In this document: piece after piece, positions 1-23,195 of the stretch
Position numbering within the stretch: the stretch's first letter is position 1
Layout: every line of letters begins with the position of its first letter
NCBI GenBank assembly: GCA_002269645.1
Contig: NIVC01001391.1
Coordinates: 124,001-188,000 of the forward strand
DNA length: 64,000 nt
Reading direction: 5' to 3'
From: Macrostomum lignano
Taxonomy: Eukaryota
Position numbers and translations under genes: made by a program
Notes under the pieces: model-generated
What the model saw: only the letters and a program-made list of their open reading frames with translations
Databases searched by the model: none
What the model was told of the DNA's origin: nothing

Positions 1-1097
1 AATCCCCTTAGCAATGAGCTAGAGCTCATTAAAATAGCTATAAACCCAATCCGGAAAATTTGCAGTTTTCCCATATAAGTTTCAACGCTGACTTGCCAGT
101 AGTCTAGGAGAAAAATTGCAACACGCAGACAATCATCGCACCAGTTTTAGTATTAAGACGAGGCCAACTCCTCCTTCGGAGAAGAAAGGGGAAGAACTCC
201 CATCACCGGAATTCCATTCCCTGAACTCCATCAGCCTAATCCCATTTTCCAACAGCTCTCCGCGCAATAGAAATCGTCTCCGTGAAACTGAACACCATCG
301 AAATCGTCTCCGTGAAACTGAACACCATCGAAATCGTCTCCGTGAAACTGAACACCATCGAAATCCTCTCCGCAAAATAGAAATCCTCTCCGTGAAACTG
401 GACTCAATCGAAATTCCTCCGTCAAACAGAACTCAGCTCTCAGAATTCATTGGTTAGGGTTAGGGTTAGAGCTACACACAGCTGCATGTTGAAGGGGACC
501 GGTAAAAAAAGCATTTTTTCTCATTCAGTCAATATCATGGTCTCAGTTAGAGTTACCAAAAAGATTGCGCAATCTAATTCAACCCTCCAATACACAGCGA
601 CCGATCCCCTTCCAGTACGCAGTGGCAATTAAAAGTTGAACTGATATCTTTCCCTTATGCAGAAAAGCATGCTTTCGAATCCTCATATTTTGAATTTCGA
701 ATTATTTATAGCTCGTAGCAAAAGCTCAAGAAGTTGAAGCTTAGTCTATGGCCATAGACATATTATTATTTCTCAAGTGCTCACTGCGAGAAATATTTAT
801 TTATTTTTAGCTCATAGCATCCAAGCCACAATAAGTTGAAGTTTAGTCTATGGCCATAGACATATTGAGCTCTCACTGCGAGAAAAATACACTAATTAGA
901 TAGGGAAAGTACAGTTTTTTGAATATTTAATCCCCTTAGCAATGAGGTAGAGCTCATTAAAATAGCCTAAAGCCTGCTCCGGAAAATTTGCAGTTTTCCC
1001 ATATAAGTTTCGACGCTGACTTGCCAGAATTGTAGGAGTTTACTTGCAACATACAGACAGACAGACAGACAAACATCGCAGCACTTTTAGTATAAGG
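1..1097 (+). mobile_element. Non-autonomous Helitron/Helentron-like (HINE-type) repeats: two copies of a ~165-bp end module (1-160 and 929-1097)
   Basis: Direct repeat AATCCCCTTAGCAATGAG..TTTTAGTAT at 1-160 and 929-1097. The second copy contains (CAGA)n. There are two ~60-bp repeats carrying the palindrome GTCTATGGCCATAGAC (~745 and ~845) and a short (TTAGGG)n tract at ~453-469. Family assignment is by resemblance only. Confidence 0.4.
262..410 (+). repeat. 30-bp tandem repeat AAATCGTCTCCGTGAAACTGAACACCATCG, 3 perfect copies plus degenerate copies
   Basis: Identical units at 271-300, 301-330 and 331-360. Confidence 0.95.
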
Positions 1098-1106
1098 AAA
1101 GAAGAA

Positions 1107-1483
1107 GTATAAAGGGAAGTTAATGGCCTGGAGAGATGAAGTTTCCGGTTGTACACCGTTGGAGTTTGCATTTCTACGTCCGAAAAACTATTCAATGGTG
1201 TATGCAAAGAAAAGCCTCTGTCAGGCTCTTGTGCGTTGCAAGGGCGTGTCGAAGTCGATTGTAAGAGGTATGAAGCACAATGTATTTTTGAGTGTGTTGA
1301 AGGATCGAGTTTTGGAGCATGTAACGATGCGGACGATTACCTCGCGACGACAGAAGATTTATCTTCTTGAGCAGCGCAAGCAGGCGCTTAGCTTTTTCGA
1401 CACGAATGGCTCGATGTAATGCTCGAATGGCCTGGCTCGATCCCTACTCATCCCTCCCATTTGGTCATTGGCGGTTGACTTGA
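1107..1483 (+). pseudogene. C-terminal fragment of a Polinton protein-primed DNA polymerase B (GC-richer family)
   Basis: EFAFLRPKNYS..KGVSKSIV..TITSRRQKIYLLEQRKQALSFFDT and, after a frameshift, SLPFGHWRLT*. These match the pPolB C-terminal motifs EFxxLRPKxYS, KGV, KxALSxxDxKR and LPFGH. Confidence 0.8.
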
Positions 1484-1754
1484 CTTGTTCTCCCTGTCTC
1501 TATTTTCTGTCTGTTTATGCTTTTTCTGCTCACAATATATGTGCGCAATTATCGAATGTATATGCAAGAATCCGCCTTTCCTTCTTTCTTTTTGTATTTT
1601 TTTTCGTTTTTCTAGACCAATGATAGCAGTGCAGGGGATTAGTACTAGGCTTAGTTTTTTGGATTGGGACGAGGATTACGAGGGTAGTACTAGACTTATT
1701 TTAGAGGATGACAAACCTCCTAAGCATAAGAGGAACTATGATCCGGCAGCCACG

Positions 1755-2234
1755 ATGAGCCCCGACGCTTGCACGACGGTCCCGCTGCGCGTAGTGCTCA
1801 CGGATGCCGGGGCAGTGATGCCTCGGCGAGCTACGGCCGGGTCGGTGGGCTACGCCTAGCCACGTGCGAAGACCGCACTGTGGAGGCCTTTGACACGGCC
1901 ATCATTCGCACCGGCCTCCGGGTGATGCTGCCGCCAGGCACCTATGGTCGGATAGCGAGCCAGTCCAGTTGGGCCAACCGAAACCTCAATGTGCAGGGCG
2001 GCGTGGTTGACCCGGACTATACCGGGGAACTCCGCGTGATCCTGCACAACACGTCATGAGAAAGTTCATCTGCCGTGTGCCACCAGCGTGGCCCAACTGA
2101 TTCTGGAGCGCTGCGTCACGCCCCCGGTAGAAGTCGGTCGAGCTTGCGAGGGCCAGCTGCCGGGGGTGTGGCACCGACAACCGGAGCCGGTGGCGGTTCG
2201 CGAGACGGGTGACATGGGCAGCACTAACATGTGA
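1755..2234 (+). pseudogene. dut: dUTPase, two frameshifts (~1857 and ~2056)
   Basis: All five trimeric dUTPase motifs are recognisable across frames: AGSVGY(D)L, GRIASQSS, GGVVDPDYTGEL, VAQLIL and a variant motif V RETGDMGST. Confidence 0.9.
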
Positions 2235-2380
2235 TGCTGCTCGCGCCCGGAGCCCGTCGGTCAGTGGTGGGAATTGGTGGCGGCTTGTCACTTTGATTAT
2301 TAATACAAGATACTGCTCGTGGATTTAACCGCTGTGTGTATAAGTAAATGCAATTGGTTCTTTTGGTACAATTAAGTGGG

Positions 2381-2905
2381 ATGGGAACACAAGGCCGACA
2401 GAAGAAGAAGAAGCGAGTGCGTTCGACAGCAGCAAAGTCGACTCGAGCTAAGAAATCTCGTCGTCGAGGTCAGACGGGGTTTGGTATTGTTAATTGGGTA
2501 ATAAATCATCTCCCAGGGGAGCTTCATTTGCCGGGAAGTTACCAATTCTGCGGCCCCGGGACCAGATTGAAAGAACGTTTGGCGCGGGGCGATACTGGAA
2601 AGAATCGGCTCGATAAATTGTGTCTCTTACACGACCTGGCATACGAGAAGCACTCGGACGTGGCAGAGCGTTCAAAGGCCGATCAACAACTCGAAGCAGG
2701 AGCTCGAGAGATTGCTGCGGATCCTACAACTAAGTGGGGGGAACGTTTGGCCGCAAAACTGGTCCCGCGTTATGAACGTAAAACAGCGTTTGGGTGCCTA
2801 GAATGGACAGGCGTACATTCGACTTGCGATTTGCTCATGACTCGACGTTTATCGTCGCGGGTCCTTCGAATTCGGGAAAGACTGAATGGGTGCTTCGACT
2901 GGTAA
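2381..2905 (+). CDS. Parvovirus VP1u-like phospholipase A2 of a Polinton/adintovirus; intron-less allele
   Basis: ELHLPGSYQFCGPGT (Ca-binding loop), DKLCLLHDLAY (catalytic HD), and KADQQL. The 3' end is probably extended by decay. Confidence 0.9.
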   Translation: MGTQGRQKKKKRVRSTAAKSTRAKKSRRRGQTGFGIVNWVINHLPGELHLPGSYQFCGPGTRLKERLARGDTGKNRLDKLCLLHDLAYEKHSDVAERSKADQQLEAGAREIAADPTTKWGERLAAKLVPRYERKTAFGCLEWTGVHSTCDLLMTRRLSSRVLRIRERLNGCFDW

Positions 2906-3410
2906 GGGAGCGCTTGGGTCTGTTTCGAGTAGTACCAAGGCGTCTAATTTGGTGTCTCGGTACAGAGTTACATTCGTCTGAGGAAAAACGAGTTCGAGAA
3001 TGTTGGACGTTGGGTGGAAGTGGCGAATGTCACTTCGTACAGGGATTCCCCGATCAGTTGTTGGCTAGATTCAAACCGCACGATTTAGTCGTTGTTGATG
3101 ATTTGCAGGGTGAAGTTGCAAAGCAACGCGCTTTTACCGCTGTATTCACCAAATTGGCTCATCATACGCCATTGACTTGTCTTTATTTGTGCCAAAATTT
3201 GTTCGACCCTGCGGATCCTGAGGCAAGAAAAAGAAGTTTATCGACGAGTTATATCTGTTTAAGCCGAAACGTTAGGGATCGTAGCGCCGTTGAACATTTG
3301 GGTCGGCAGATGTACCCCCGAGCTAGTAGATTTCTGGTGCAGGCTTATGACGACGCGACGAGTGACAAGGCCTTCAGCTATCTCTTCATAGACTTACGAC
3401 AGACCACGTC
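2803..3410 (+). pseudogene. A32/FtsK-like genome packaging ATPase, truncated at an inversion junction
   Basis: Walker A GPSNSGKT, Walker B VVVDD, and AHH..CQNLF, RNVRD, LGRQMYP, AYDDAT, FSYLFIDLRQ. Homology stops at ~3410. Confidence 0.92.
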
Positions 3411-3640
3411 CTGGTCGCCGACCACGTCCAACCTGTTTTTTTACCACAGGTGTCTTTCTGCTTATACCCTTTTTCCTGACTTGTCGCCGCTTAACCACAA
3501 CTGGTCCATCAGTAGTCGTCAATCTACGTTTCTTACCCATTCCAATCGTCTTCTTCAGGAAGCTTAAACCGCCCTCTACTAAATCCTTCCGGGCTCTACG
3601 TAGCACGGGATTTAATGCGTTGGACTTGCGGCGAATTCAG
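3410..3640 (-). pseudogene. Basic (K/R-rich) Polinton core-like protein fragment, inverted relative to the ATPase
   Basis: PVLRRARKDLVEGGLSFLKKTIGMGKKRR..KKQVGRG resembles the basic QxGRG-ending proteins of Polintons. Confidence 0.5.
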
Positions 3641-3699
3641 TTAAATATACTTTGCAGAAATAAATGGCCAAGGCTAAGGAAGAATTGGATTTTGCATTC

Positions 3700-3878
3700 A
3701 ATATTTCTTTTAGAAGAGCGCTAGTGTTGGTTCGTGTGTCGTATAAGATAAGAAAGGTGAGATTTGTACCTTATCAAACGCCGGCTTGGGCGAGTTGCGT
3801 TTCGCTCGTTAGCTCGAATTGACGGAGGCGTATTACAGTTCGAGTGTAGGTGGTTGCGTGTAATTTACTAATACTACT
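3700..3878. mobile_element. Probable right terminus of a Polinton (..GTAATTTACTAATACTACT)
   Basis: Ends in ACTACT at 3878 and resembles the termini at 24255 and 30829. The matching left end was not found, so the TSD cannot be tested. Confidence 0.5.
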
Positions 3879-3957
3879 AACAAGCGCTGTTAAATACTGA
3901 GAAAATACTCAGAGAATGTAACATTTTACTCCGCTGTGCTCTTTATATTGAAAAAAC

Positions 3958-4302
3958 ATGCCTTCAAAGGGTGAGCTCGTCCTTCGCTACAAGGAGTCAA
4001 CGGCGAAAGTTAACCACTTTTACGACGAAATCGCTGCTGTTTGGCCTGAAACTGTATTGAAAGACTTAGATGTCAACATGATTTTGAAGTCGATACCTAT
4101 CGACTACAAGTTGACAAAGGAACGGGACCTTGTCGATCTTCTAGACAAGTTGGACGCTGCAAGAAGAAGCCAGGAAGCCGCGGCTGCTGCAACTACGCAA
4201 CAGGGGATCAAAGCCAATCGAAAAAGAAAATTGGAGGAGAAGAAGAGCGAAATATTTTCTAGCGTGGGTACCCGCTCGCCAACGAGTCAAGAGTTGCTTT
4301 AA
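3958..4302 (+). CDS. Hypothetical 114-aa viral-type protein with a basic NLS-like motif (NRKRK)
   Basis: Clean ATG-to-stop ORF with globular-looking composition; no family recognised. Confidence 0.45.
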   Translation: MPSKGELVLRYKESTAKVNHFYDEIAAVWPETVLKDLDVNMILKSIPIDYKLTKERDLVDLLDKLDAARRSQEAAAAATTQQGIKANRKRKLEEKKSEIFSSVGTRSPTSQELL

Positions 4303-4437
4303 CTAATATTATCATCTTTTTTTAATGTTCTTCATATTATTGTCTGTCCGCTCTATGAGAATTTTTTCGGATCGATGGAGCAATCTTATTATCATAAATA
4401 TATCAGTGAAGATAGGTGAAATTAGTGAATTGTGACT

Positions 4438-5008
4438 TGTGAGAAAAAATCACAATTTCTTAATGATTTCTGTAAAGTTATAGTAGCTGTCATAATTTTT
4501 TACGTAGGTTACTCCATACTTAATAAACCAGTGTCTTTGGAGAGCTAGATTAATATTAGGGACATTTATTGTGTGGTCTGGCCAATATTTTTTCATGTAC
4601 TCACTGCATTCTAGTTTGCATCGGTACTTACGAGTACTCTTGTAATTAGGCTCGTGCCTTTTGTAAAAAGAACCTGGAGAGACGAATGGAAGCATTTTTA
4701 ATTGAGAATTTAATTTTTTCAAAGGTAAGGACCCTGCGCCGAGGATCTGGTTTCGCATTGCGAATTGAATGTGGGGAGAAGAATGCAGATTATTTTCTGA
4801 TTGTTTCGAAGATGCTATGGGTGGATGTCGGTGGATTATGTCAGTGTCAGGGATAATATGGTTGGATTTAGGTGGATTATGTTCGAAGTTTACGGAGCAA
4901 GTGCGTCCCCTCTTTTTTCTGATTCTGTCGGGGATAATATGGATGGATTTAATGGGATTATGGAGGACGTTAAAAAAATTGTCCCAAAAGCCCCTCATGC
5001 ATTCTACT
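4438..5008 (-). repeat. Repeated module, copy 1: small ORF (MLPFVSPGSFYKRHEPNY..) plus ~60-bp GGATAATATGGATGG tandem units
   Basis: Near-identical direct copy at 23190-23960 and a more diverged inverted copy at ~19025-19570. Confidence 0.9.
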
Positions 5009-5014
5009 TATGGG

Positions 5015-5920
5015 AGTAGTAGTGTTATATAAGGGGCTGCGCCACACTTATTGCTCAAGCGCATTGCGCGCCAGCTCGCTGGATGACTCAGCCCCTTATA
5101 TAACACTACTACTGCCAGGTGGTCAGAGTTGCAAGGGGTGTGTGATATATGAATATACATATATCTGTGAGTGAGGGTGTTGAGGGTGAGGGCATGTGGG
5201 GGGCATTGACCTGTGGTATATTTCTCAGAATTTTTATACTTTTTAAAAAGGAGGGTGCCCTCGCCCTCATGCCCTCAGTCATTTTGAAAATCACAAAAAA
5301 TAACTGAAAATGACTAAAAACAGGTGAAAATGGTCTGAAAACAGCAATTTTTCGTGATTTTCAAATTTTTGAAAAAGTGAAATTTTCACGATTCCAGCTC
5401 TAAAACCATGAGAAAAGTTGGATTCACGGGTCAATTCAAAACTAGGACGTTGGGTCCTAGTTGGGTCCCAATGTTAGGACGTTTGGTGGGTCTGTACGTG
5501 GACGTCTGTACGTGGACGTCGTGGAGTCTGGACGTGGGTCTGTAGATGAGTATATATATATATATATATATATATTTTACTATCGTTGAATTGGATGACA
5601 CTTTCATATTGTATATACCTGAATTGCATTGAATTGATATATATCAAATATATATATCAAATATATATAAATATATATATATATATATAAATACAAGTTT
5701 ATTTTATATACATAAAATAAACATATACATATATAAACATATATAAACATAAACATATAAACATATAACATATATATATATATATATATATAATGGCCTT
5801 CAGTAAACCATTATTTCTAGGAAACGCTTAGATATTCAGTCAGCTATAACAAAACTACCACCCATCTTCGCCACTGGAAAGTATCCTGGCGAATTTCATA
5901 TTCCAGGCTATTCTTTCGCA
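5015..5920 (+). repeat. Left TIR of element A (partner ~16275-16928), with (TA)n tracts and the PLA2 5' exon
   Basis: Reverse complement matches 16275-16928 apart from a left-only insertion/inversion at ~5440-5790. Confidence 0.9.
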
Positions 5921-5923
5921 GGT

Positions 5924-6817
5924 TACGTAGTGGCCTGAGTGAGGAAGTCAATGTCCTTGCTAGTCATCGAATAAGCACTTGTTAAATTTTCTAAAGTAAA
6001 AATGGAGCAAACAATTCGAAAAATCCTTCTGAAACCAATTGATGATAAGGTTGGGCATGATCAAATTCTTCATGATCTTTTCCAAGAAGAGTTAATAATT
6101 TCACACAAGATTAAAGTTATTCAAATGAGACTAGGCAGACTATATGAAATATTAGCAGAAAATTATTTTATATTCGAGAAGGTAAAAAAGATAGACCTGG
6201 TTCACGTTGAGCGAAAGATTGCATTAGAGCTTAAATCTTCTGATAACAAGGACAATTCATCAAGTCGTGAAAGGAATTATCAGAAACTATTAGACTATAA
6301 AAATTCTTATCCCACCTATCAGTTGTATTATGTATGCATCAATAAAACTACAAAGGAACCTAATAATATTTTACTACACAATGAAATCACCCTTATAACA
6401 GGAGAATTTGCATTAAAATTTTTTATGGGGATCAATACAAAAACATTATAACCAACATTAAACAAGTGCTTAGTGATTGGCAACACCTTCAAATTGCGGG
6501 AACTCCGTCCGAACGAAGTTCGAGTACCTCAGGTACGTCAACAACAGCCTCAAGTACCACTTCAGTTGAGAAATCTTCTGAAGGAACACAGGTAATTCCT
6601 GTTCCCAATCGGACTTCGTCCGCGATCCTATGGTTCGATGGTAACAAGCTTGAAGACATGGTGGAAATCCGCAGCCAAGCTCGTAAGTCCGAACGAAGTT
6701 GACAAGGATATTGAGAAGGTTCAGAGACTTAATGGGGGTGGGGCTGAAGGATCTGGTCAATCCTGATGATGCCTTAAGATAAAGTCCAGCCTCTTTCGAA
6801 AGATTGAGGATCGACTG
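5924..6817 (+). ncRNA. Group I self-splicing intron, subgroup IC1-like, 894 nt
   Basis: P1 CAGGU(5919-23)/GCCUG(5933-37) with the U.G pair at the 5' splice site. P2.1 UUGCUAGUC(5957-65)/GAUUGGCAA(6475-83). P3 CACCUUCA(6484-91)/UGGGGGUG(6733-40). P4 UGCGGG(6495-500)/UCCGCA(6668-73). P6 GCC/GGU. P7 G-A-GACUU(6724-30)/AAGUCC(6782-87). J8/7 UAAGAUA. P8 GGGC/GCCU. P9.0 AG/CU. Omega-G at 6817. Removal restores the GPGT motif in frame. Confidence 0.95.
6002..6451 (+). CDS. Intron-encoded PD-(D/E)xK restriction-endonuclease-like protein (putative homing endonuclease), 149 aa
   Basis: Intact ORF in the loop closed by the stem TAAGCACTTGTT(5972-83)/AACAAGTGCTTA(6461-72). Motifs QMRLGRLYE..IDLV..IALELKSSDNKDNSSS; strong Kozak context AAAATGG. 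Confidence 0.75.
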   Translation: MEQTIRKILLKPIDDKVGHDQILHDLFQEELIISHKIKVIQMRLGRLYEILAENYFIFEKVKKIDLVHVERKIALELKSSDNKDNSSSRERNYQKLLDYKNSYPTYQLYYVCINKTTKEPNNILLHNEITLITGEFALKFFMGINTKTL

Positions 6818-8013
6818 CCCGGTACAAATTTAGACAAAAGACTCAATCCAATTACAGACCGGCCTCGGTATGACAGTCTACCAATTAACCCAATCGATTG
6901 GACTGCTTACTATCATGACAAAAACTATAGAGATGCTGAAAACACTTCTTCAAATCCAGAGGAAGCTCTAGCAAAGAAGCATATAGCTGATGAAAAAATG
7001 ATAGCTGATTTAGATGCTATTCCAACCAGCGACTTGTCTGTGAAGGAGAGACTCATTAGAAATCTAGTAAAGCGTATTATCAAAGCTAAAGTTCGGTTTG
7101 GATTAGGCATTCATACTCACAACCCCAACAATTGTATAGACTGTCTAACCATATACGGCAATAGTCTTAGCTATGAAGATGCTTTGAAATTGCATAAAGA
7201 AAATCGAAAGCCAAGAGTGTTTAGAAAAATGATTCACTATGCAAAAGACACAATTTGGCATGCAGATATCATTATCCTACCACCTGAAAGAGGTTACAAA
7301 TATGCTCTCACTATCATAGATGGTTTTACACGTTACGCTTGGGCAGTTCCTTTAAAAACAAAGACGGGAGCGGAAGTTGCATAAGCTTTCCAAAAAGTAT
7401 TTCAGGAATCAGGAAGACGTTCAGAGAGACTTTGTGTAGATGAAGGCAAGGAGTTTTATAATCAGCATATGTAAAAGCTATACTCGTTTTCAAAAGACAA
7501 CATTAGAAAGAAAGATGAAAATGGGGAGTATATTAACAAGATGTTCTCAATTTATGGTGAGTCTAAGAATACAATGATTGAGAGGTTAAATCGTACTCTC
7601 ACAAATAAACTCTGGTTTGAATTTGATCTACAAGGAAACCAGAAGTGACTCCACATATTGCTAGCTATTGTTGATAAGTACAACAACACAATCCATTCAG
7701 AGATTCTGATAACTCCTTCAGAAACATCTAAACATCCTGAGCGAGTACCAAAGCCTTCATTTGAGTATTCAAATGAGAAACAAAACTTCAAAGTAGGTGA
7801 CAAAGTTCATATCTATAGATATAAGGAGCACTTTGAAAAGGGTCGAAGAAGTTATTGGAAAATTTCAGAAGTGTTTAGGATAAACAAATAGTTTATAATA
7901 GAAAATAGTTTATTCAAATCCAATAACCTACATTATTGAAGATGAGAATGGAGAAGAAATTATTGGATCATTTTACAAATCCCAGCTTCTACCAGCAAAT
8001 TTTTCAACTAAAA

Positions 8014-8436
8014 ATGAGCGCTTACCGAACAAACTGCAAACGGGCGAAAGGTCAGATTGAAACGTCAGATTCACAGCTACTAGCTGATAAAGAGGGTGAA
8101 GGAATTGGTGATATGATCAGTGGTGTCACAAACTTTTTATCAAATCATGGAAGTAAAATTGTGAGTGGAGCTGATGCAATAGATAAAACAGCTACCACAG
8201 CGAAGAACATATTCGATGCGAAGAAATCATACAGTGACATGTCTAAAGCAGGTGAGGAACTGGAATATATTAAAAAGAAACGTAGAGAAAAAGAAGCAAA
8301 GAAAAGAATGGAAGAAGAGCAACAGATAGCTTCTCAATCAAATAAGGCTATTCAAGATATTGTTAAAAAGGCTCTAGGAACAGCAGAACAGTCTCAAGTG
8401 TCTTTGAGACAAGGCAATGGTTTGAAGAAATTCTGA
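8014..8436 (+). CDS. Polinton core/cement-like protein (GEGIGD motif, coiled coil)
   Basis: KEGEGIGDMISGVTNFL followed by a charged coiled coil and a C-terminal QGNGL. Lies downstream of the integrase. Confidence 0.55.
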   Translation: MSAYRTNCKRAKGQIETSDSQLLADKEGEGIGDMISGVTNFLSNHGSKIVSGADAIDKTATTAKNIFDAKKSYSDMSKAGEELEYIKKKRREKEAKKRMEEEQQIASQSNKAIQDIVKKALGTAEQSQVSLRQGNGLKKF

Positions 8437-8444
8437 CCTTAAAA

Positions 8445-8861
8445 ATGAGCGAGAAAAACACTGAAGCCAGACTCAATCGATATGTTCGAGAAGGGAAACC
8501 AAGATATGTTACTGTAAATAAACAAAAGCAGTATCTTTCTAAAGAGAAGATTCGAGAATTGCAAGAGAAACAGAAAGAATATGAAGGTGGAATAATTCCT
8601 CTATTAGGCTTACTACCAGCAATTTTGGGGGGTATCGGAGCAGCCTCTGGAGTTGGTACAATGATTGCAAAAAGTGTTAATACAGCCAACAATGCTAAGC
8701 ATAATAAGACAATAGAAAGCATTGAACGGCAAAAACTAGAAGACTTGAAAAAGGCTCAAGGGAGTGGAGTATTAGTTGATGCGGCTAAAAGAGTCGAACA
8801 AGTACCCAGCGAAGCAGTCAAGTGGCTGCTAAAGACTTTTAAAGTTAAAGGAATTTTTTAG
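8445..8861 (+). CDS. Polinton pVII/pX-like core or membrane-lytic protein
   Basis: EGGIIPLLGLLPAILGGIGAASGVG: a GG-hydrophobic motif typical of Polinton protease-processed proteins, with a later QGSG. Confidence 0.65.
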   Translation: MSEKNTEARLNRYVREGKPRYVTVNKQKQYLSKEKIRELQEKQKEYEGGIIPLLGLLPAILGGIGAASGVGTMIAKSVNTANNAKHNKTIESIERQKLEDLKKAQGSGVLVDAAKRVEQVPSEAVKWLLKTFKVKGIF

Positions 8862-9029
8862 CTTTCATATTGGTTTTGGATTTTGACAACCAATAGGAGT
8901 GTCGCCCAAGCTAAAAAGAATTAGCTCATAAACCCAGTCTATATAAGTAGTTCATTCACCAACAGATAGACATAGATGTGCGCGCCTCTAACTACTCAAC
9001 TACAACTCTGTCACTGCTTACTTCACATT

Positions 9030-9629
9030 ATGCCCTCGGCTCTGAAATTGCGAAGACGATATAACGACGCACGTACCAAGACAGAGCATATTAAAAGAAA
9101 AATTGAAAAACTTTATCCGTTGACTGTTTTTCCTAATTTGGGAAATATAGATAACATCGATGTTTTCTACGCTTTTGTTCGAGAAGATAAGCTGCTTAGT
9201 CTTCTAAAGCAATATTTAAACTGCCGAAAATCGGTTAACTATGCCCGAATAGCATATCAGTCAAAGAAAGATGAGAGCACGAGCCTCAATGAACTACCAA
9301 GGGAAGATCGATATGATGAGCCACCGCCATATCAAGAGATTCAACGAGCGATAACACAACCAACACTAGCGGGCGGCAACTGGCCATCTGAACCCTACCA
9401 CAAACAGATGGCGGCGCACCAACAGATGGCGGCGCACCAACAGATGGCGGCGCACCAACAGATGGCGGCGCACCAACAGATGGCGGCGCACCAACAGATG
9501 GCGGCGCACCAACAGATGGCGGCGCACCAACAGATGGCGGCGCACCAACAGATGGCGGCGCACCAACAGATGGCACCAACAGCGGCAAACCAAACAGGCA
9601 GCTTCCAATACGCCACTGCCGATGGATGA
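9030..9629 (+). CDS. Hypothetical protein with a PPPY motif and an 18-bp (QQMAAH)n expansion
   Basis: Homologous to 17586-17982, with shared LRRRY, LLKQYL and EPPPY. The tandem repeat lies at ~9402-9575, nine full units plus a partial. Confidence 0.6.
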   Translation: MPSALKLRRRYNDARTKTEHIKRKIEKLYPLTVFPNLGNIDNIDVFYAFVREDKLLSLLKQYLNCRKSVNYARIAYQSKKDESTSLNELPREDRYDEPPPYQEIQRAITQPTLAGGNWPSEPYHKQMAAHQQMAAHQQMAAHQQMAAHQQMAAHQQMAAHQQMAAHQQMAAHQQMAAHQQMAPTAANQTGSFQYATADG

Positions 9630-9819
9630 GGATATTATTTCATTTTGACTTTTTTTTAGATATTTAATTTTTAAATATACCTGGATGGCTTATTAGTTCC
9701 ATCAACTCAGCTCAAACAGAGTTATTACCATCTTTGGATTGAAAAAATACAATCTTTATGGCTACTACATTCTTTAATGTGTTCTGCATTCATTTTTTCT
9801 GTTACTAAAAATAGACAAA

Positions 9820-10014
9820 ATGACACACCACACACACTTATACAATCTGAATGAATTGCAAGTCGGAGACCCAGTCGAATATAGGGGTGAGGGTCTGTTT
9901 GACATAATAGGCAAAGCAGCGAATACAATAAAAGATAATATGCCACTCATAGCACAAGCAGGCTCAGCAGGCTCAGGCTCAGCAGGCGCAGACTTACGCT
10001 CAGCAGGATCATGA
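9820..10014 (+). pseudogene. Truncated core-like protein (RGEGLFDIIG motif)
   Basis: The GEGLFD motif resembles that of the 8014 ORF. Confidence 0.4.
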
Positions 10015-10269
10015 GATGGATGAACTTGTCCAACGAAACCAAGGCATTTGACAATGAAGACTTGAGTTTCCACTGTATAAGTGTTTAAAGTAGTTATAAC
10101 ATCTCTAGAAATAAAATGAATTACTATCATGCTAAATCTCTTTAAGCAGGCCACAGAATGCTCTGCGGAGTCTGGCCATTTGTGTCTGAAAATATTTTAT
10201 TTTGTGTTCCCCCTTATTGTAAACTTCCACTCGAATCAGATTGTGACTGTTAAATTTTTCATAGAAAAA

Positions 10270-10608
10270 ATGGAAGCTAATAACCCAAATGTTCAAAATG
10301 CACTGCCACAAAAATATTATTATTTTATTTTAAATTTCTCTCAAATAAAAACACCTATTCGAAAGGCTCGACTAATTGCAGCAATTGATAAAGCTTACGA
10401 TGAATATAAAGCAGAAATATTAAATCACACCGATTGTAAATGCCAACTATATTTGTATTCATTCAGAGTATATCTTGCACATGTTGATAAATGGGCATTG
10501 ATTTCGAGACAGCACATAAGGAATGATGAATTTTTCGTCATGCTGAAATTGAAGATTTTTAAACTCCCCATAACCCTTGAGAAGTACATTGAAACTGATG
10601 AATATTAA
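10270..10608 (+). CDS. Hypothetical protein; decayed duplicate at ~18405-18760
   Basis: Clean ORF, with strong nucleotide similarity between ~10240-10880 and ~18400-19015. Confidence 0.5.
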   Translation: MEANNPNVQNALPQKYYYFILNFSQIKTPIRKARLIAAIDKAYDEYKAEILNHTDCKCQLYLYSFRVYLAHVDKWALISRQHIRNDEFFVMLKLKIFKLPITLEKYIETDEY

Positions 10609-10867
10609 CAATATATGAATATTAACAATTATATTGTTAAATTTATTTAAATAAAATGGAAGGAAAAAATCAAAATGATTCAAGTGTCTCTCCTGTGATC
10701 GTACAGGATCCGCTTCAAAACCATGATGCCCCACCGCCAAGATTGACAAATTTAAAACAAAAAAATCGTACGATAAACTAATTAATCTCTATGGAGAACT
10801 TAATTTTAGATTCGGAAGTTGCGGTATAACATGGAATAGTAAAGCAAAGAAAAAAATACCGTCAGGA

Positions 10868-13168
10868 ATGCCAACCAAAGTAGATAGAAATTCAACCTCC
10901 CCACCACTTCGACCAGAGGTAGACAACATGATTTGGATAGATATTCGAAATTCAAATATAACCGTAATCGATATTGATAATGCTGACCTATGCCTTGAGT
11001 TGAATAAACTGTGTATGACTCATTGTTATTGGATTGTTCAGACAAACAAGCGTCATCACTTTTACTTTCACAAGGTAGATAGATTAAAAAAGTAACGACT
11101 CAACAAAGTGTGGGTTTTGATTTCCCGCCTTAGTATTTGCTCCACCAGGTTTCTATTATGTCGATGGTGAAATTAAGGAATACAAACGTACAAAGCCCGA
11201 AGGGTTAATGGACATGCCAGATGTAGTTCTTGAGGAGATAAATAGATTAATAAAGCCACAGGATAAAAAAAGAAAACCAAGAACCCGACAAACAGGCAAT
11301 AAAAAGCACCGTCCCACCACCCACTTGTGAAGGAGTTTCAAAGTTGTTAAATATAATACAACACAAAAACCAAGACTATGATTCTTAGTAAAAGGTAGCA
11401 CTCATACTCCGCGACATAGACAGTGGTGATGAAATGTACAAAGTATTCACTGATTGGTCAAAAGTAAATTATGATAAGTTCGATTCCGAGTCATGTAAAA
11501 ATGTGTGGAATAGCACCAGTACCAGCTCTGCTGATCGAGAGGGCAGACTTACTATCGGTACACTAAAGAAATGGGCAAGTGAAGAAAATTATTGTAAATA
11601 CAAGGAATGGAAAAGCAAATATGATTATTATGGTAGGATTGAGTTTCTTGATGATAATTTCACTGACGTTAACTTAACCAATTTTGTTTATGAATATAAG
11701 AAGAATAATATAATTTACAATAGCGATGGTATTTACTATTTTGATGATGATAAGTGGAGAGAACTAAGTAGTATAAATGACATATTTCTTAAAATATCAA
11801 ATCTTGTTAGCAGTGAGTTAAACCACCGAAAGACTAGACTCGAAATTGCAATTAAGAAGGCGGCTGATGATAAAGAGAAGTTAAAAGCACTTGAAAAGAA
11901 ACTACAGAGTACAATGAAGAATATAAATTCAATACAATGAGCCAACAAACTCAAACAGGTAACTAGTTTGTTCAAAGAGAGGTTTACTAACAATGAAATT
12001 GAATTCGACATGAAATGGAATCTGCTAGGGTTTAACGATGGGAGTATACGACCTCATTACAGGTGAGTTTCGCGAGTATAGATATGACGATTACGTTACT
12101 AAATCGGTGGGATATAATTACTCGGATGTGCTTAGAGTGAGTGATGACGACTATGAGTTCATTGTTAATCTGCATAACCAAATTCATCCCGATCCAGAAA
12201 ATAGAAAGAGTTGGGAATCCGTTATAGCCACAGCTCTAATGGGTAATAATGTTGAAAACTTTATAATGTTTGATGGCGCTGGTGGAAATGGCAAGGGAGT
12301 TGAGGACAACCTACTTCTTAGAACTCTAGGATCTGATTATGCAGCACCACTGAGTCCTGATGTTTTGAATTTACCAATAAGAATAGACAGGCCACAACCA
12401 GCCCTAGCACATATTAATAAAAAGAGGTTGGTTATCAGTCAAGAAGTAAGTGGTGTCTTGAACAATGCATCAATAAAATTACTTACTGGTGGAGGAGTTA
12501 TTCAAGCTAGAACTTTATATTCAAGCCAGTGTAATGTTGTTTTATACGCAACCCTAATAGTCGAATGTAATAACAAGCCCGACCTTAGACAAAATATTGG
12601 AGATGCAGAAAAAAGACGAATTATAAATATTAATTACCCATGTAAATATACAACAGATACCGACATCATTGATCATGCGAAACACATTTATAAAGCCGAT
12701 TCATATCTTAAGACCGAGGAGTTTAAGAATAAATATAAGTTTGCTGAGATGAAACACCTACTAGAAATTTTCAAGCAAACAAATGGTGAAATATATCGAT
12801 CGAAAAGCGTAATTGAAAACACTAATGAATTCATACAAAATTGTAATTGGTTTGCTCACTTCTTTGAAGAGAATTATGAATTTTTAGAAACTGAGGAAAA
12901 AACATTTATGCCTATTAGAGAAATTTACACTGCCGCAACAGAGAGTGAATACTATAGGACTCTAGCCAAACGCGAGAAACGTGAGTTCCAACAACAATAC
13001 ATAACAGATTTCTTCAAGAATCACAATGACTATTGTAAGTATTATAAGGATAGATATAGGCGTAGGATAGATGGTAAACGGCAAGAAACTAGAAATGTGT
13101 TGCTACAGTGCACGAAAAAAATAAACGAAGATGTTATCAATGAGATTACATTGGCTGATGAGGAATAG
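10868..13168 (+). pseudogene. Primase-polymerase / PriCT-2 / D5-like SF3 helicase, frameshifted
   Basis: VIDIDN..QTNKRHHFYF (prim-pol); FTDWSK..WNS..LTIGTLKKWA (PriCT-2); GVYDLITGEFR..DYVT (D5_N); Walker A GAGGNGKG; SIKLLTGG..ARTLY; ECNNKP; RRIININYP. Confidence 0.92.
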
Positions 13169-13475
13169 ATCTGATAGGATCCAAATAATATCTTTTATCA
13201 TCTAACGGACTCATTGTTTGTTTCATAATCTCACGAATATATATTTTATTTTTTTCATATACAGTCATACTTACTCTACCTCTTTGAATATATTTGTAAT
13301 TGTTAGCTCGGAGTCGATTATTGAATCACTTTCACTTGACAATCAAGCTGCATGCTCTCGCGGCTTACTTTGCCTTCTTTCGTTCTTTTTTATTTATTCT
13401 TTAGCGCTGCCTTCACTCATTACAACTCTATGGGTTTGGCCAAAGACAGCATACCGATGCACACACAAGCCGATA

Positions 13476-15790
13476 CTAACAGTAATCTGTCAATAGTATG
13501 TTTTTAAATGTTTCAAACTTTATATTTGTACTGCTTTTATCAACCCCCTTGATCGTAACACACTCTCCTGAAACTGTAGTGAAAGCATACTCCTTTGACC
13601 GCAAGAATACAGCTTCGGAAATTATTGAACCATTCATTTCAACTTTCAACTTTCCAGTGACTTTCTTATTCTTCTCAGAGTATAGTGGATGCTCTCTTGG
13701 ATAATCCGATGTGTCTAAGTGTTCTTTATTTTTTTTCAAGATCCTCATAAACATCCTAAGTAATCACTGAGAATATCAACGAATCACAATCAGAATAGTG
13801 CAATTGACAGTTGTTCCAATTCTTCTCAATAACATTGTAATAGCAATCGTACATTAGCATTTTTGCATAATCCAGAATGGCCATTCCTAAATAAATTGGC
13901 TTGTCACACGCAATTGTCTTTTTGTACATTTGGATACCAACTGCATCCTCACTAAACATAATGAAATCTTTGAAATTTGGTTTGGAAAAATAACGCCTTG
14001 CAGTTTTTTCTTCGGCTACAAGATGAAAGTTCGACCTATTCTTTACATTTTCGATTGTTTTACCGTAGAATAAGTTGTTTAGTAGTTTCCACAGGTCTTT
14101 CTCAAATTTAGTTTTTGCTTCCATTCTCCGCCTGGTATTAAATTCGATGTATTTACTCAACCAGTTTGATTCTTTGAATGAAATAATTCTATGAACTCTC
14201 GTAACTCGCATGCCCATCTTCTCATAAAACTCAAGTTTCAAGTGATGTAAAACAAATTTCTCCTTGTTGTAAAATGTCAACATCAACTTGGATTAAACAA
14301 ACTTTTTCTTTTCGACTTCAAGATATTGCTTCTGTATATCAGATAAATCCTCAAATCTAGTTGTTCGTTTCTCAGGAGCCAGTGGATATTTACTTGTAGC
14401 TTTCTTACATTCCTCTGTATATTCAAGGTCAACTGCAAAAAAACAACCCCTGTCATTAGGAATATTCTTGTGATACTCTAGATCATTTTCAAACTTGAAA
14501 TCTCCCACAGGAAGATTTTTCATCATTGCTTCACCATATAAATTATTTTTGTCTAGGTATAACATGTATGACGATTCATAATTGCTGTCATAATTTTTTA
14601 AATACTTGTTATTTATTTTTTTATATCGATCTCCAAGAACTCCAGAGAAACCGCTGCGAATACCACCTTCTACCATGGATATCATATCTTTATCACCAAG
14701 TAATTCCAATTCCACATTAGTATATTTCAACCCACATGCCCACGATAATCCAGAAAGGGAAAAGCAATACGCAGGATCTATCTTGAAATATTTCAAAAAT
14801 GTTGATCGAAACTTCTCAAAAGCATTGACAAATGAGTAAATCTTTCTAATTTCTGTCGTTGTATCACTGGGTGGCAAATATTTTATTTCTTCTTCAGAGA
14901 GTGTAAATGGTGGTTCCAAAAACCTAGATCCATCTAAAAACACAACACCACTGGTATAATTCCCCCACTTAATTGAATTATTAATTGAATTATTAATTGA
15001 ATTGATTCGCCTTGCCCTCCTTGGTATTACATGATCGACATGCTGCGCCGCGATATTTACCATTGTAGTGATTATGCTCTCGAATTTTTTTACTATCTAC
15101 AAATGGCCTTGAGCAGAGAAAACATTGTTCTGCTGCTTTGTAATCAGTCTCTTCGACATCACTTAATCTTGGATGTTTATATTTATCCATTTTATTTTTT
15201 ATATGCTCAAATTTTTTTTTACGGTTTTAACGAATGATTCCACTGTAGTATTTGAAATAATATCTGATTTTATAATATTTTCATAATCGGAACTAATAAA
15301 AAATGTCCAGTTTCATAGCTGTATGGATTTATCATCCATCGTTACATAATCTAATATTGCATAAAACACAAATGGCTTTCTTACACTCATGTGGTAGTTC
15401 TTAAACTTTAACATCCTCTTATCAATCTTTGGAACTTCAATTGACACCTTGAAGTCATTACAGATTGCTTTATGATTATCCAGTGCATCCTGGGAGTATT
15501 TAACTTGAAGACACTTTCGACAAAGAAAAACCCTGTTGTAATTTTGGGACGTGAGGAATAAGCTTAGGTCTGTTATTAAACAATAATGATTTTTAACAAG
15601 TAGTAAATCAATAACATCGGGGTTGTAATCTTCTGTCAGACGAATAGAATATATTGACTCTTTGGTATTTATATCTCTCAATCCAAACACATTTATATGG
15701 AGGCTGTTCAACTTTTCAATCTCAGAGATATCTCGAATGTTCACTGGAAATTTAACGTCTCCTAAGTTTATTTAATTTATATACTGTGCA
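13476..15790 (-). pseudogene. Protein-primed DNA polymerase B (pPolB), fragmented by frameshifts and deletions
   Basis: FPVNIRDI..INVFG..HYCLI..CRKCL; EndoVII-like CFLC..REHNHYNGKYRGAACRSCN; motif A YLDKNNLYGEAM; motif B KLLNNLFYGK; KPIYLG; motif C YSDCDS; C-terminal KEY..IKGV. Confidence 0.95.
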
Positions 15791-16017
15791 TACTTACCAA
15801 CTCTATATCTATGTTCCTTCACAGGATGGATACAATTTATCCTGCTACTTTGCCGTTTGTACTTTTTTACCTTTTTGCTATAGATTGTAAGATCTTTAGT
15901 AATGCATTCAATACTGCCTTTGATTTCACCCTTTCTCTGATTGAAATAGTCCCGCTCCCTCAAATCTGCTTCATGCAGCTCAACCACAGGATAGATGTGT
16001 TCATTTTTTTCATTCAT
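15772..16017 (-). pseudogene. Truncated small Polinton ORF (HIYP..KKYKR)
   Basis: Resembles the N-terminus of small coiled-coil/membrane ORFs of Polintons; weak support. Confidence 0.35.
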
Positions 16018-16274
16018 TTTTAAGTGGCGATTATGTCTAATAGCCGTTTTCGCCCAACAAAGATAGAACCTGTGTATGGGGTCGAAGAGAAACTGTACTA
16101 AACATCTCTACAACATCACCTTCTCCCAATTCGAGTCAATATAATTTAAGCACTAGATTATCCTTGAGTGCAAATCCGAAATACCATATCAAAGCCTTAG
16201 GACGAAGCGAATACAGAACAAATTGTTGAGTTTTGTTCAGCATTGTATGGATCAAGTGGATAAGGTACAAGTCA

Positions 16275-16928
16275 TGCAAAAGAATACCATGGAATATGAA
16301 ATTCGCCAGGATACTTTCCAGTGGCGAAGATGGGTGGTAGTTTAGTTATAGCTGACTGAATATCTAAAGCGTTTCCTAGAAATAATGGTTTACTGAAGGC
16401 CATTTTATATATATATGTTATATATATATAATTTACTATCGTTGAATTGGATGACACTTTCATATTGTATATACCTGAATTGCATTGAATTGACCCGTGA
16501 ATCCAACTTTTCTCATGGTTTTAGAGCTGGAATCGTGAAAATTGCACTTTTTCAAAATTTTTGAAAATCACAAAAAAATTGCTGTTTTCAGACCATTTTC
16601 ACCTGTTTTTAGTCATTTTTCAGTTATTTTTTGTGATTTTCAAAATGAGTGAGGGCATGAGGGCGAGGGCACCCTCCTTTTTAAAAAGTATAAAAATTCT
16701 GAAAAATCTGTGTTCTGAGAAATATACCACAGGCCAATGCCCCCCACATGCCCTCACCCTCAACACCCTCACTCACAGATATATGTATATTCATATATCA
16801 CACACCCCTTGCAACTCTGACCACCTGGCAGTAGTAGTGTTATATAAGGGGCTGAGTCATCCAGCGAGCTGGCGCGCAATACGCCCGAGCAATAAGTGTG
16901 GCGCAGCCCCTTATATAACACTACTACT
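16275..16928 (-). repeat. Right TIR of element A, with an intron-less dead-end copy of the PLA2 5' exon (MAFSKPLF..HIPWYSFA*)
   Basis: Inverted match to 5015-5920; similarity ends at the FA codons. Confidence 0.9.
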
Positions 16929-17001
16929 TATGGGGATCAATACTAAACATTATAACCAACATTAAACAAGTGCTTAGTGATTGGTGACACCTTCAAATTG
17001 C
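16929..17001 (+). pseudogene. Fragment of a second copy of the group I intron (end of the nuclease ORF, P2.1 3' strand, P3 5' strand)
   Basis: TATGGGGATCAATAC..AACAAGTGCTTAGTGATTGGTGACACCTTCAAATTGC matches 6424-6497 with a few substitutions. Confidence 0.9.
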
Positions 17002-20798: not shown

Positions 20799-20868
20799 CC
20801 GATTAACACCGCACCCTCGCCTCGCCTCACCCCGCCCCACCTCGCTCCGCCTCACTCCGATTCTTGTT

Positions 20869-21844
20869 ATGGCTTCCAAGACTCCCAGTCAAATTATTAA
20901 CACAATCAAGAGCAATAGCACCAAGGACACGGCCAACGCAGCAATCGCCATCTCAGAAACATCTGAGATGAACAAGTCACCTTATTGAAGAGCCTCCAAC
21001 AGGTTGAAGAGCAATCTTCAAAAAAAGAAAAAACGAACGACGATAGCGAGAACGAACGACGTGACGTACGTTTTATAGCTCGGTTAAAGGAAACCATGAG
21101 CAACATAAGGAATGAGGAAATCGTAATCCGGATAAGGTAAGTCTTTTGCTTATTATTTTTACTAGCTTGTTAGTGAAACATATTGAAAAAATTTCTCAAA
21201 ATTCTTGACTTAGTGATTTAAAAGTGATATAGATAGATTTGACGGACATTAGAGATTTATGCAAGCCTTTGACCTCATTATAATTGAATATTATTTCTTT
21301 TTTTAGATATAACGACCCCAAAGAGCTGTGCACAGCCGATGTGCCAGACGACGAAGAAGGCATGCGCTTGCAATACAGCACGCTGGACTTCTTTACCGCA
21401 GACGTTGAAGTTCTGGGGTGTCTAGCGACGAAAAAACAGGCTGAGGTTTTTGCCAAGTACAAGAACAAATTTGGTCCAACGACCGAAGAGACCGCTAGAC
21501 GTATAAATACTCCGGTAAAATTTGGTCAGCGGCTGCTTACATTTCATGGTTTAATTAGCAAGTTTCCCAACATCCTGTTCTCTGGCTACAGCATGAAGAC
21601 GTTGCTTGCATTCAAGAAGATTATCGAGAAAGAAGCCTTGGACGACGAGAACTTCCGGTGCAAGCTGGAAACAGACTTCACTTTAGTCTGGGAAGATGAC
21701 GAAGCGAAGAAAGCCTTCGGACGACGGAAAAATGAAGACAGCTGTTTAAACGTTGAAAAGGAAGAAGGAAGAAGAACGGGAGGTGATGCAAAAGAATGCT
21801 CACTTTCAGAGGTAGAACTGTCATGTCGTGCCTGTCTTTGTTGA
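20869..21844 (+). pseudogene. Unknown helical family member 2, with a GT-AG intron at 21137-21306
   Basis: Splicing gives IRIR|YNDPKELCTA..EVLGCLATKKQAEV..KFGQRLLTFHGLISKFPNILFSGYS. There is a 1-bp deletion at ~20968. Confidence 0.7.
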
Positions 21845-22140
21845 GGTGTGAAATCTCTTTGATTGATTCTATTCATTCGATCTGGAGTGTTGTTCTAAGC
21901 GTTGCCAGTTTGTTGGGTATTGTTTCTTATATTCAGCTACTTCCAAGAGGCCTCACTCCTCGAGTTGACCGAGAACTTGTTTTTCTGTGAAATGTTTCTG
22001 CTGTTGTGGCGGTTGCTGTTGTATTTGTTCTGTATATTTCATGACTTCCACCTGATCTGGCAAACCGAACCATTGTTTAAAGTGCTTGTACTTTTTTAAT
22101 TTTTAATCATTTCTTATTTATATTTTCTTTTAGTTAAAAA

Positions 22141-22527
22141 ATAAACGACCCACTGACACCAGTTTTCTACAAAATTAACAAGCCTATTTTGAGTGATGAT
22201 AGCACAATCAAAGCGACTCAGGTAAGATTTCCCAGTCAGGAAAATCAGAATGAAACTAATATTGGTCCTGGTCAAACACTGACATTCACTTACAATGGAT
22301 GTTCGTCTCTGGTTAGTGCGCACAGTCTTAAGAGCAGCTTTCATATGACATTTTAATTCAAGACAAAGGGTGGTGCGGATGCGGCTCATGCTAACGTTGA
22401 CAGGCATGATGCGGATTTGGCTCTGATCAGTAACTTTTGGGCATACATGTTCAAGGAGTTTAGTGTTAGTACTAATTACCATGTCTATCTTAACGACTTC
22501 CCTGGTTGGTCAAACATTCCAATGTGA
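22141..22527 (+). pseudogene. N-terminal fragment of the Polinton major capsid protein
   Basis: Frame not in the ORF track: PILSDDSTIKATQVRFPSQENQNETNIGPGQTLTFTYNG..(stop)..DLALISNFWAYMFKEFSV..DFPG. This fits the D-S-[IT]..[FY]xP..G..[IT]xF..N..xF pattern of Polinton MCP N-termini. Confidence 0.65.
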
Positions 22528-22639
22528 CGGCAGCAAATAATAACTTTTATTACAAATGAAAAAGTGCAGCAGCAGAAGCTGTGGTATTCCCTGTGAGCAC
22601 GCAGAGTGTGGATACCTACAATTACTTTCTAGAAAACTT

Positions 22640-23195
22640 CTTTACTAAGAGGCCATTTTGAGACACCTGATCCGAGTAGGCCAGACAAAAACTGTTCCCT
22701 GTCAAACTAACCTATGATCTCACTGTAATGAGAGTGGTCATGCAAGTTCACAAAGATGCGGAGGTTGAGTTTAAAGATGACACTTGGTATAGGGAATTGG
22801 GATTCGAGAAGAAAGTTTATAAGGTAGAATCCACGGCGCGGACCGACACTCAAGCGCCTAAATCATCGGGGGCCGTTAGCATGGCCCGGGAAAATGTAAG
22901 CGGTTTGTTCTTAGCACCCAATATTGCAGACATTGTAAAGGGTTTGAATATTCTAATCAGAAGTACTGTCAGTATTGATTGGGTATTTAAAGGAAAGCGA
23001 ACGAATATTTTGTACAACATCTGGAGGACAGCTGGAGGACAGATGCTGGTAGAGAAACCAAATCCAGTGAAAAGAGTTGTATTGAGTAATAAGGAGATTT
23101 ACGAGATTGTGCTACAGTTTAAAACTGAAGATGGGGTAGGTGTTGATTTCAACGGTGAAGAGTTTGTATTGACGTTAATCATTGAGAGAATGTGA
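22640..23195 (+). pseudogene. Minor capsid (penton-like) protein, 5' truncated
   Basis: RELGF..NILIRSTVS..GKRTNILY..GQMLVEKPNP..IYEIVLQFKTEDGVGVDFNGEEFVLTL. Confidence 0.8.

Follow-up and report, generated by a model that had tools for sequence, protein, structure and literature searches.

The 64-kb stretch of DNA analysed here (the window) carries an 894-nt group I intron (type A, 5924..6817, + strand) in a gene of a Polinton-type element, and the intron in turn encodes a nuclease. In the reading that we consider fairly probable, this is a mobile intron, its nuclease cutting intron-less copies of the gene and its insertion making the carrier immune. From the structure of the intron and from comparison of its copies we infer splicing, cleavage, specificity and homing, and the arguments for each are laid out below together with the alternatives that have to be weighed.

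The intron and the element that carries it

A covariance-model search bears out the group I identity claimed in the original prediction: RF00028 matches at 6404-6808 with 84.6 bits (cut-off 50; E = 4e-20), and this is the sole Rfam family match within the window. The boundaries proposed there, between a Gly and a Pro codon, hold as well; a T precedes 5924, the base at 6817 is a G, and the two codons flanking the window intron are those found joined in natural alleles that lack the intron. Checked position by position, P1 (5919..5937, +), holding the internal guide sequence as well as a U-G pair at the 5' splice site, consists of four Watson-Crick pairs plus the pairing of the U with G5933 (5919-5923/5933-5937). 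The helices of the ribozyme core (P3 to P9.0 and the terminal G6817; 6484..6817, +) all pair, P3 (6484-6491/6733-6740) in 8 of 8 positions including two G-U pairs, P4 (6495-6500/6668-6673) in 6 of 6 including one G-U pair, and P7 (6726-6730/6782-6786) in 5 of 5, with G6726-C6786 as the guanosine site; P9.0 lies at 6788-6789/6815-6816, and hairpin folds are present for P8 and P9. A convincing P10 had not been found in the window intron before and was not found by eye here either. Two P2.1 stems (5959..6481, +), one of 9 bp (5959-5967/6473-6481) and one of 12 bp (5972-5983/6461-6472), enclose most of the nuclease ORF, which takes up about 480 of the intron's 894 nt in the P2.1 loop. The ribozyme structure originally described stands, but the intron is more than a ribozyme, as this loop encodes a nuclease that had gone unnoticed.

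Folded as a single strand, 6455-6817 is unexceptional (z = -1.34, with 10 of 100 shuffles equally good), so that the support for the intron comes from the covariance model and from pair changes between intron types, not from folding energy. P7 is paired in 5 of 5 positions with three different sequences, those of the window, of a metagenome contig (L074) and of the type B1 introns described below, the L168 row of this comparison being a wrong pick, and by eye type B2 adds a fourth fully paired P7 sequence, its P1 being altered on both sides too. Almost every copy retains the core helices, and the changes that distinguish the intron types are two-sided. The terminal G is found in 28 of 28 type A copies when small end offsets are allowed for, and RF00028 scores above the cut-off in all 28 scored genome candidates; the intron-less loci L055 and L059 and the decayed copy L026 gave no RF00028 match.

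About 165 nt between the P4 strands fold as a multi-helix domain, and the P4-P6 stretch bears what we take to be a resemblance to the Tetrahymena A-rich bulge. The Tetrahymena IC1 intron Tth.L1925 has an extended 3' domain (P9.1, P9.2, P13); this is absent from the window intron, where just 31 nt lead from P7 (6786) to G6817 and make up P9.0 and one hairpin. The window intron is a group I intron, and IC1 may serve as a candidate label for its subgroup, the general Rfam model alone having been used for scoring.

ORFs, Pfam matches and inverted repeats agree with the earlier placement of the intron in a protein-coding, PLA2-like gene of a Polinton-type element, and the gene proves to be a PLA2-integrase fusion. 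Exon 1 (5793..5923, +), delimited by comparison of 28 copies, runs up to the Gly codon of the Ca-binding loop and is frameshifted near 5825-5830 in the window copy. Exon 2 (6818..7891, +), delimited from ORFs, Pfam and copy comparison, opens with Pro-Gly-Thr at 6818 and holds the remaining PLA2 domain and the rve integrase, with a stop at 7382-7384 and further breaks in the window copy. The uninterrupted PLA2 domain of an intron-less allele matches PF08398 over its length with 36.8 bits; rve is matched with E = 1.4e-5 by the window piece and with E = 1.3e-7 by the second element family (B, see below), both slightly below the cut-off, and PF00665 is present on most of the 120 listed homologues.

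The element spans about 11.9 kb (5015..16928, without a strand of its own), contains several broken genes, and ends in terminal inverted repeats (5015-5230/16713-16928, 98% identical, plus further arms), with identical 6 bases abutting both ends at 5009-5014 and 16929-16934. Both flanks are themselves pieces of related elements. A primase-helicase (PriCT_2, D5-like; 10727..13168, +), recognised from ORFs and Pfam, and a protein-primed DNA polymerase B (13756..16107, - strand) are both present in pieces. The polymerase is assigned through its nearest atlas clusters, which are DNA polymerases (look-alikes at 0.95, two clusters having PF03175 on 17% and 23% of their members); the pieces themselves have no Pfam polymerase match, and a PDB sequence search with one of them returned nothing significant. 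The element thus combines the hallmarks of Polintons/Mavericks, namely inverted repeats with a 6-bp duplication, an rve integrase and a protein-primed polymerase B. No capsid, penton, packaging ATPase or protease gene was recognised within 5015-16928 from ORFs and Pfam, and the window element may therefore be a non-autonomous derivative. ORFs upstream in a family B copy look capsid-, penton- and protease-like by eye and have no Pfam match.

Further remains lie in and around the element. Just beyond its right end lies a fragment of the same intron that covers the last part of the nuclease ORF and runs up to where P4 begins (16929..17001, +, by eye); additional, truncated exon 1 copies are found within the right repeat (16272-16400, - strand) and upstream in L023-L025 and L059, and in L059 a 40-nt intron remnant adjoins the intron-less allele. 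Window positions 1742-3567 are the remains of another element, with a dUTPase, a PLA2 gene whose Gly-Pro loop is unbroken and an A32-like ATPase, in which GGNCC is not depleted. A penton-like ORF at 22114-23195 (by eye) represents a separate large family, with at least 150 genome copies at 87-92% identity (490 candidates). Three related genes of unassigned function, with apparent GT-AG introns, lie at 20860-21850, 24805-25670 and 29480-29920; an element ORF contains an 18-nt coding repeat (9399-9574), numerous tandem-repeat arrays with periods of 20-40 nt occur in 36700-63400, and the window holds no tRNA.

Intron copies and empty alleles in an animal genome

The assembly searched (G000; 764 Mb in 5269 contigs) has the gene content of an animal nuclear genome, in keeping with the original prediction. 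It contains 159 matches to the nuclear-receptor zinc finger, against none in 14 control prokaryote genomes, and 150 homeodomains, among them a Hox1-like one (best solved match HOX-B1, E = 7e-30) and, by eye, a Hox3-like one; its 18S gene, judged on signatures rather than on a tree, is presumably that of a bilaterian. Among its 13 small-subunit rDNA matches none exceeds 1813 nt, that is, none is longer than an intron-free gene. Most marker genes are present three or four times, nearly identical and each time on a different contig, which points to polyploidy or to haplotypes that were not collapsed; copy counts are therefore inflated by about that factor.

The window by itself shows virus-like pieces and tandem repeats and no identified host gene, which would also be expected if the element came from a symbiont, a food organism or a free virus and had been joined to animal contigs during assembly. 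We nevertheless consider this very improbable. The full intron (836-895 nt) occurs at the same site in at least 28 copies on 28 contigs, with 77-100% local identity and differing flanks, and homeodomains or zinc fingers of nuclear receptors are also encoded on intron-bearing contigs C292, C56, C1319, C23 and C2098, in the closest case 38 kb away (C56). In addition, 6-base repeats flank the window element, and the stretch is present in 20 of the 24 listed sequencing runs, which come from seven studies and all from one organism.

These copies emerged from a DNA search in which 40 of 291 candidates were scored and 43 matches obtained, and the intron-plus and intron-minus copies that the original prediction had proposed to look for are both there: among 30 loci fetched with exon 2, 11 are clean intron-less alleles and one more has lost a base of exon 1. 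When 24 intron-plus alleles were compared with the 12 intron-minus alleles over 75 + 540 exon bases (4 of the 28 copies being excluded as truncated or offset), fixed differences were confined to positions -6, -4, -1 and +3 of the 615 nt. A tree of exon 2 intermixes the two kinds of allele; in L005 and L023 exon 2 is identical, the introns being 93% alike. Short co-conversion during homing would leave such a pattern, and gene conversion could do so too; the mixing of alleles could likewise come about through ordinary recombination or gene conversion between copies.

Four of the 24 runs were examined for junctions, all in the form of assembled contigs, which drop rare variants (no run holding the stretch is listed as RNA in its record, and 14 of the holding entries are RNA by guess). 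The sole exon-exon joint, seen in three of these four runs, bears the letters of the intron-less allele, and some contigs bridge unspliced junctions; the contigs of the four runs, from which rare variants are dropped, show no listed joint at the ends of the intron itself.

The same genome harbours a second Polinton family, B, whose PLA2-integrases are 57-59% identical to that of the window and make up most of the 150 matches listed. Its type B1 introns, of about 300-330 nt and without ORF, occupy the same site; RF00028 gives 53-63 bits in 4 of 4, and when the best 40 of 212 candidates were scored, all 40 matched at 96-100%. Twenty further family B loci comprise 19 with a B1 intron, ending in A in 15 cases and in G in four, and one that is empty; L165 is an empty allele reading Ala-Gly-Pro-Gly-Thr, with T at -1. 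For type B1 overall (L164, L167, L168, L171, L174-L192), 19 of 23 introns, among them all four of those read first, have A at the terminal-G position, with P9.0 kept, and four have G. A terminal A instead of G should slow or block the second splicing step. The A-ending B1 introns may splice, or may use a G nine bases earlier, which would add three residues in frame; the literature search brought up no paper on introns ending in A. Type B2, at two loci (L166:626-950 and L170), scores 42.9 bits, below the cut-off, with E = 2e-8, and its guide sequence has changed along with the exon. These B2 introns show an unusual P4 region, and exon 2 is in frame there only as Ala-Gly-Leu-Thr, not as Pro-Gly-Thr. 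P3 and P4 of the family B introns were assigned from Rfam alignments and reading by eye.

A restriction-type nuclease and its predicted site

ORFs, copy comparison, Pfam, fold and dN/dS together describe the intron ORF (6002..6702, +) as a PD-(D/E)xK nuclease of the Eco47II family. The window version is frameshifted near 6420 (149 aa) and scores 21.3 against PF09553, below the cut-off; in 15 of the 28 copies the frame is open for 211-250 aa and reads through into the ribozyme core. PF09553 (RE_Eco47II) matches all 18 aligned members, with 31.1 bits (cut-off 25.9) for the one from this genome. Seventeen metagenome proteins are 46-64% identical to the nuclease, a profile search collects 313 proteins at E 0.001, and its atlas look-alikes are viral and bacterial restriction-type clusters. 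In the structure model (pLDDT 91.7) the top fold match is EcoO109I (Foldseek E = 1.5e-4), which in a second fold search is the sole chain of 48,161 with Z of at least 8 (Z 9.9, rmsd 3.7, 162 aligned). A PDB sequence search with the nuclease profile returned nothing significant, and the listed fold matches include no homing enzymes of the I-Ssp6803I type. Residues E76 and K78 are invariant and D65 is nearly so. By family score, fold and PD-(D/E)xK residues the nuclease belongs to the Eco47II family, and it probably derives from these type II restriction enzymes; its gene has the setting of a homing-endonuclease gene, an ORF in an intron loop with intron-less alleles present. With dN/dS at 0.11-0.30 in 7 of 10 pairs (1.04 in one pair with five changes, two pairs being saturated), the nuclease is, as judged from these ratios, under purifying selection within each family.

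This last result bears on the idea that the introns are inactive relics of an old viral acquisition, no longer spliced and passively multiplied, with the integrase perhaps starting at a Met inside exon 2. Many type A copies are indeed broken, most type B1 introns end in A, and an in-frame Met at residue 61 of exon 2 lies ahead of the integrase domain. We nonetheless think it quite unlikely, for both exons are open over the stretches compared in 13 of the 28 type A copies, to which come the open nuclease frames, the near-universal retention of the core helices through two-sided changes, and the apparent purifying selection on the nuclease.

The recognition sites of EcoO109I and AvaII contain a GGNCC core. 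Every Gly-Pro codon pair spells GGNCC, the intron being inserted after the third base, and therefore no synonymous change can remove the intron site. GGNCC is also what the available part of PMC10305163 assigns to an Eco47II homologue. Among 60 homologues examined, Gly-Pro stands at the Ca-binding loop in 26 of the 29 that have the motif. In the element core (5790-16270) GGNCC occurs 0 times against 10.2 expected, the lowest of 16 such palindromes, and in 8.1 kb of a family B element 0 times against 7.1; observed/expected ratios elsewhere are 0.70 in the flanks, 0.91 in window 1-5014 and 0.59 in rDNA. Synonymous shuffles pooled over the families give 0 against 4.3 expected (23 of 2000 shuffles; control ORFs 14 against 14.4). 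Taken per family they are not significant (132/2000 and 377/2000, with one ORF of the A set in the wrong frame), so that part of the depletion stems from the protein sequences. Two intron-plus copies have GGNCC re-created just within exon 2, and two sites lie in the left repeat of the window copy. Around distant relatives of the nuclease GGNCC is not generally avoided (rank 6 of 16), and these relatives are therefore no confirmation of the specificity. We regard the depletion as moderate evidence; the nuclease most likely cuts GGNCC, or a longer site built round it. What the depletion indicates is a 5-base core, as opposed to the homing sites of 14-44 bp given in the accessible text of PMC7463340, a longer site being possible.

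Family-wide avoidance of Gly-Pro outside the loop, which the 60 PLA2-integrase homologues seemed to show (2 against 27 expected), was discarded when Pro-Gly, Gly-Ala and Ala-Pro proved equally low in the control and other integrases behaved alike. Giant-virus-like loci around distant relatives of the nuclease (L065, L076, L085, L121, L130 and L147) strongly avoid other 5-base palindromes, namely CCNGG, CTNAG and GCNGC, a hint of other restriction specificities.

The intron might splice while the nuclease serves a virus as a restriction enzyme against host or competitor DNA, the intron then shielding an unavoidable site or riding along and moving by ordinary recombination. By fold the nuclease comes nearest to type II restriction enzymes whose sites are short, giant-virus contigs carry free relatives of about 30% identity with no group I match in 9 of 9 scanned, and in family B the gene lies outside the intron, in a slot that another endonuclease-like ORF can occupy. 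We hold this possibility to be unlikely, though less so than the relics considered above, in view of the position of the gene within the intron loop in both family A and L074, the read-through tail on at least nine metagenome proteins, and the fixed allele differences, which stay within 6 nt ahead of the site and 3 nt behind it, a pattern that short co-conversion would lead one to expect. A methylase motif set was found neither in the window element nor in the family B stretch by a motif scan, the same scan being positive in 3 of 48 relatives' loci.

In family B the nuclease, 64-68% identical to the embedded one, is free-standing: of the 7 loci in which the slot can be seen, 5 contain it there, with an overlap into the PLA2-integrase start, and the other two (L164:45-638, L165:1-288) have an HNH/endonuclease VII-like ORF instead. 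The HNH/endonuclease VII-like and PD-(D/E)xK ORFs end in the same residues over the next start codon, much like an exchangeable nuclease cassette. In L169 (G000:C1063) the nuclease gene is truncated and leads into unrelated coding sequence for a cysteine-rich, RING-like protein. The nuclease tree places the free-standing enzymes as sister group of the type A ones encoded within introns (99/91), inside a clade with embedded-type tails (97/88), and this position suggests, with moderate force, that the free-standing nuclease escaped from an intron; the deep branches of the tree may suffer from two wrongly picked giant-virus ORFs (L064, a long branch, and L110, dropped), and P0052 and P0053 were dropped as well.

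The mobile-intron reading that we prefer would then run as follows. A family of mobile group I introns would reside in the PLA2-integrase of Polinton-type viruses and would have entered the animal germline with them. The folded transcript would be attacked by guanosine following the U-G pair, and joining of the exons would restore the Gly-Pro of the PLA2 Ca-binding loop and the frame into the integrase. Where another element, co-resident or co-infecting, has its Gly-Pro site empty, the nuclease would cut there, and repair from the intron-bearing copy would spread the intron along with a few flanking bases, that is, by homing. The element would have purged GGNCC elsewhere, leaving the intron to split the sole remaining site, and the intron would act as self-protection in a methylase's stead; since the Gly-Pro site cannot be recoded, the intron would also protect its carrier. 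In family A the nuclease gene would act from inside the intron, and in family B the free gene just upstream would serve ORF-less introns by collaborative homing. Since an enzyme cutting at 5-base sites would be toxic to an animal nucleus, this reading has to assume either that the site is longer or that the enzyme is expressed only while the virus replicates. More tentatively, and with rather less than even confidence, we suggest that an animal germline harbours a natural system of homing and immunity made up of an active self-splicing intron and a domesticated restriction enzyme of 5-base specificity, with GGNCC purged except at Gly-Pro, where ribozyme introns would stand in for a methylase, and with at least three intron types (one mostly A-ending) and embedded and free nucleases competing for the site.

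Relatives and known systems

The original prediction had supposed that the virus picked up an rDNA-type ribozyme. The closest relative with DNA is an intron at the same site of a metagenome PLA2-integrase: on the 1.3-kb contig L074 the guide sequence is the same, the core scores 80.6 bits and the nuclease is 55% identical, in a PLA2-integrase only 35% identical in exon 2. At least nine further metagenome nucleases carry read-through tails, and two integrase homologues start with the intron-tail peptide. Among 90 loci of nuclease relatives L074 alone convincingly matched the ribozyme core (L110 gave a weak match and no Rfam match), and the distant relatives (about 30%) free in giant-virus contigs gave no group I match in the 9 of 9 scanned; a pattern scan of viral contigs brought up 10 loci, none with an RNA family match, and a PLA2-integrase scan matched no viral contig. 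Because L074 shares the site in so distant a gene and none of the 13 host small-subunit rDNA matches exceeds an intron-free gene in length, a recent pickup from rDNA is not indicated, and by these comparisons the intron family is a virus-resident one.

The comparison with known systems draws on those parts of the cited papers that were available. Nuclear group I introns are stated to occur solely in rRNA genes of microbial eukaryotes (PMC3679873) or to be confined to microbial-eukaryote rDNA (PMC9223047, PMC8395846), and their nucleases to be of the His-Cys box type (PMC9548176). With such introns (IC1, IE, e.g. Tth.L1925; PMC3679873) the window intron shares the core fold, the 5' U-G pair, the P7 G-C guanosine site, a nuclease gene in a peripheral loop near P2 and an enlarged P5 region; unlike them, it lies in a protein gene, encodes a PD-(D/E)xK nuclease and has a very short 3' domain. 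Closer in setting are the RF00028 introns of polinton-like viruses integrated in cryptophyte, rhizarian and chlorophyte genomes (PMC12220804), which are likewise group I introns of an integrated element in a eukaryotic nuclear genome. The cryptophyte ones, of 309-376 bp, interrupt a short gene without annotation that lies upstream of the capsid gene, and the part of that paper available identifies no nuclease; the introns described here have an animal host and a PLA2-integrase gene as their site, and are accompanied by a nuclease and by intron-less alleles.

PD-(D/E)xK homing enzymes and collaborative homing are known from phages and bacteria (PMC3984707, PMC3943268). Phage mobile introns (PMC3984707) resemble those described here in that a conserved protein motif hosts the intron and a free-standing nuclease stands beside an ORF-less intron; here, in contrast, the embedded and free states coexist in one animal genome, and the suggested path is the reverse of the published one. 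With Eco47II-family enzymes (PF09553) and EcoO109I the nuclease has sequence family, fold and catalytic residues in common; it differs in having no adjoining methylase by motif scan, in being encoded by a virus-like element of a eukaryote, inside an intron or beside it, and in that its activity is predicted. Polintons/adintoviruses with PLA2X (PMC8502044) have similar inverted repeats, integrase, protein-primed polymerase and parvovirus-like PLA2, but here the PLA2 is fused to the integrase. The available main text of PMC8502044 describes no intron or endonuclease in such elements (one unrelated mention of 'intron', none of 'endonuclease'), nor do the accessible portions of PMC8502044, PMC11296320 and bioRxiv 10.1101/2023.08.22.554363 report such an intron in animal Polintons.

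The original prediction knew of no standard description of such an intron. This remains true for animals, as no nuclear group I intron of an animal was found in print by a literature search covering few of the subscription journals, but the introns of protist polinton-like viruses have been published (PMC12220804, as far as available). What is known, therefore, is the protist cases, and what is new is the animal nuclear setting, where group I introns were held not to occur. According to the accessible text of PMC7463340, homing endonucleases exist only in unicellular organisms and organelles; dozens of protein-gene copies in animal chromosomes would break both this statement and the rRNA-only one of PMC3679873. 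The locus shows stages of an intron-nuclease association together, namely the empty site, the ORF-less intron, the free nuclease and the embedded nuclease, and it supplies natural ribozyme variants ending in A. It offers a candidate link by which restriction enzymes with short sites could have given rise to homing enzymes, together with a precise prediction of cleavage, and it would make group I ribozyme splicing from a nuclear mRNA in a metazoan cell, as well as natural homing in a germline, testable in an animal.
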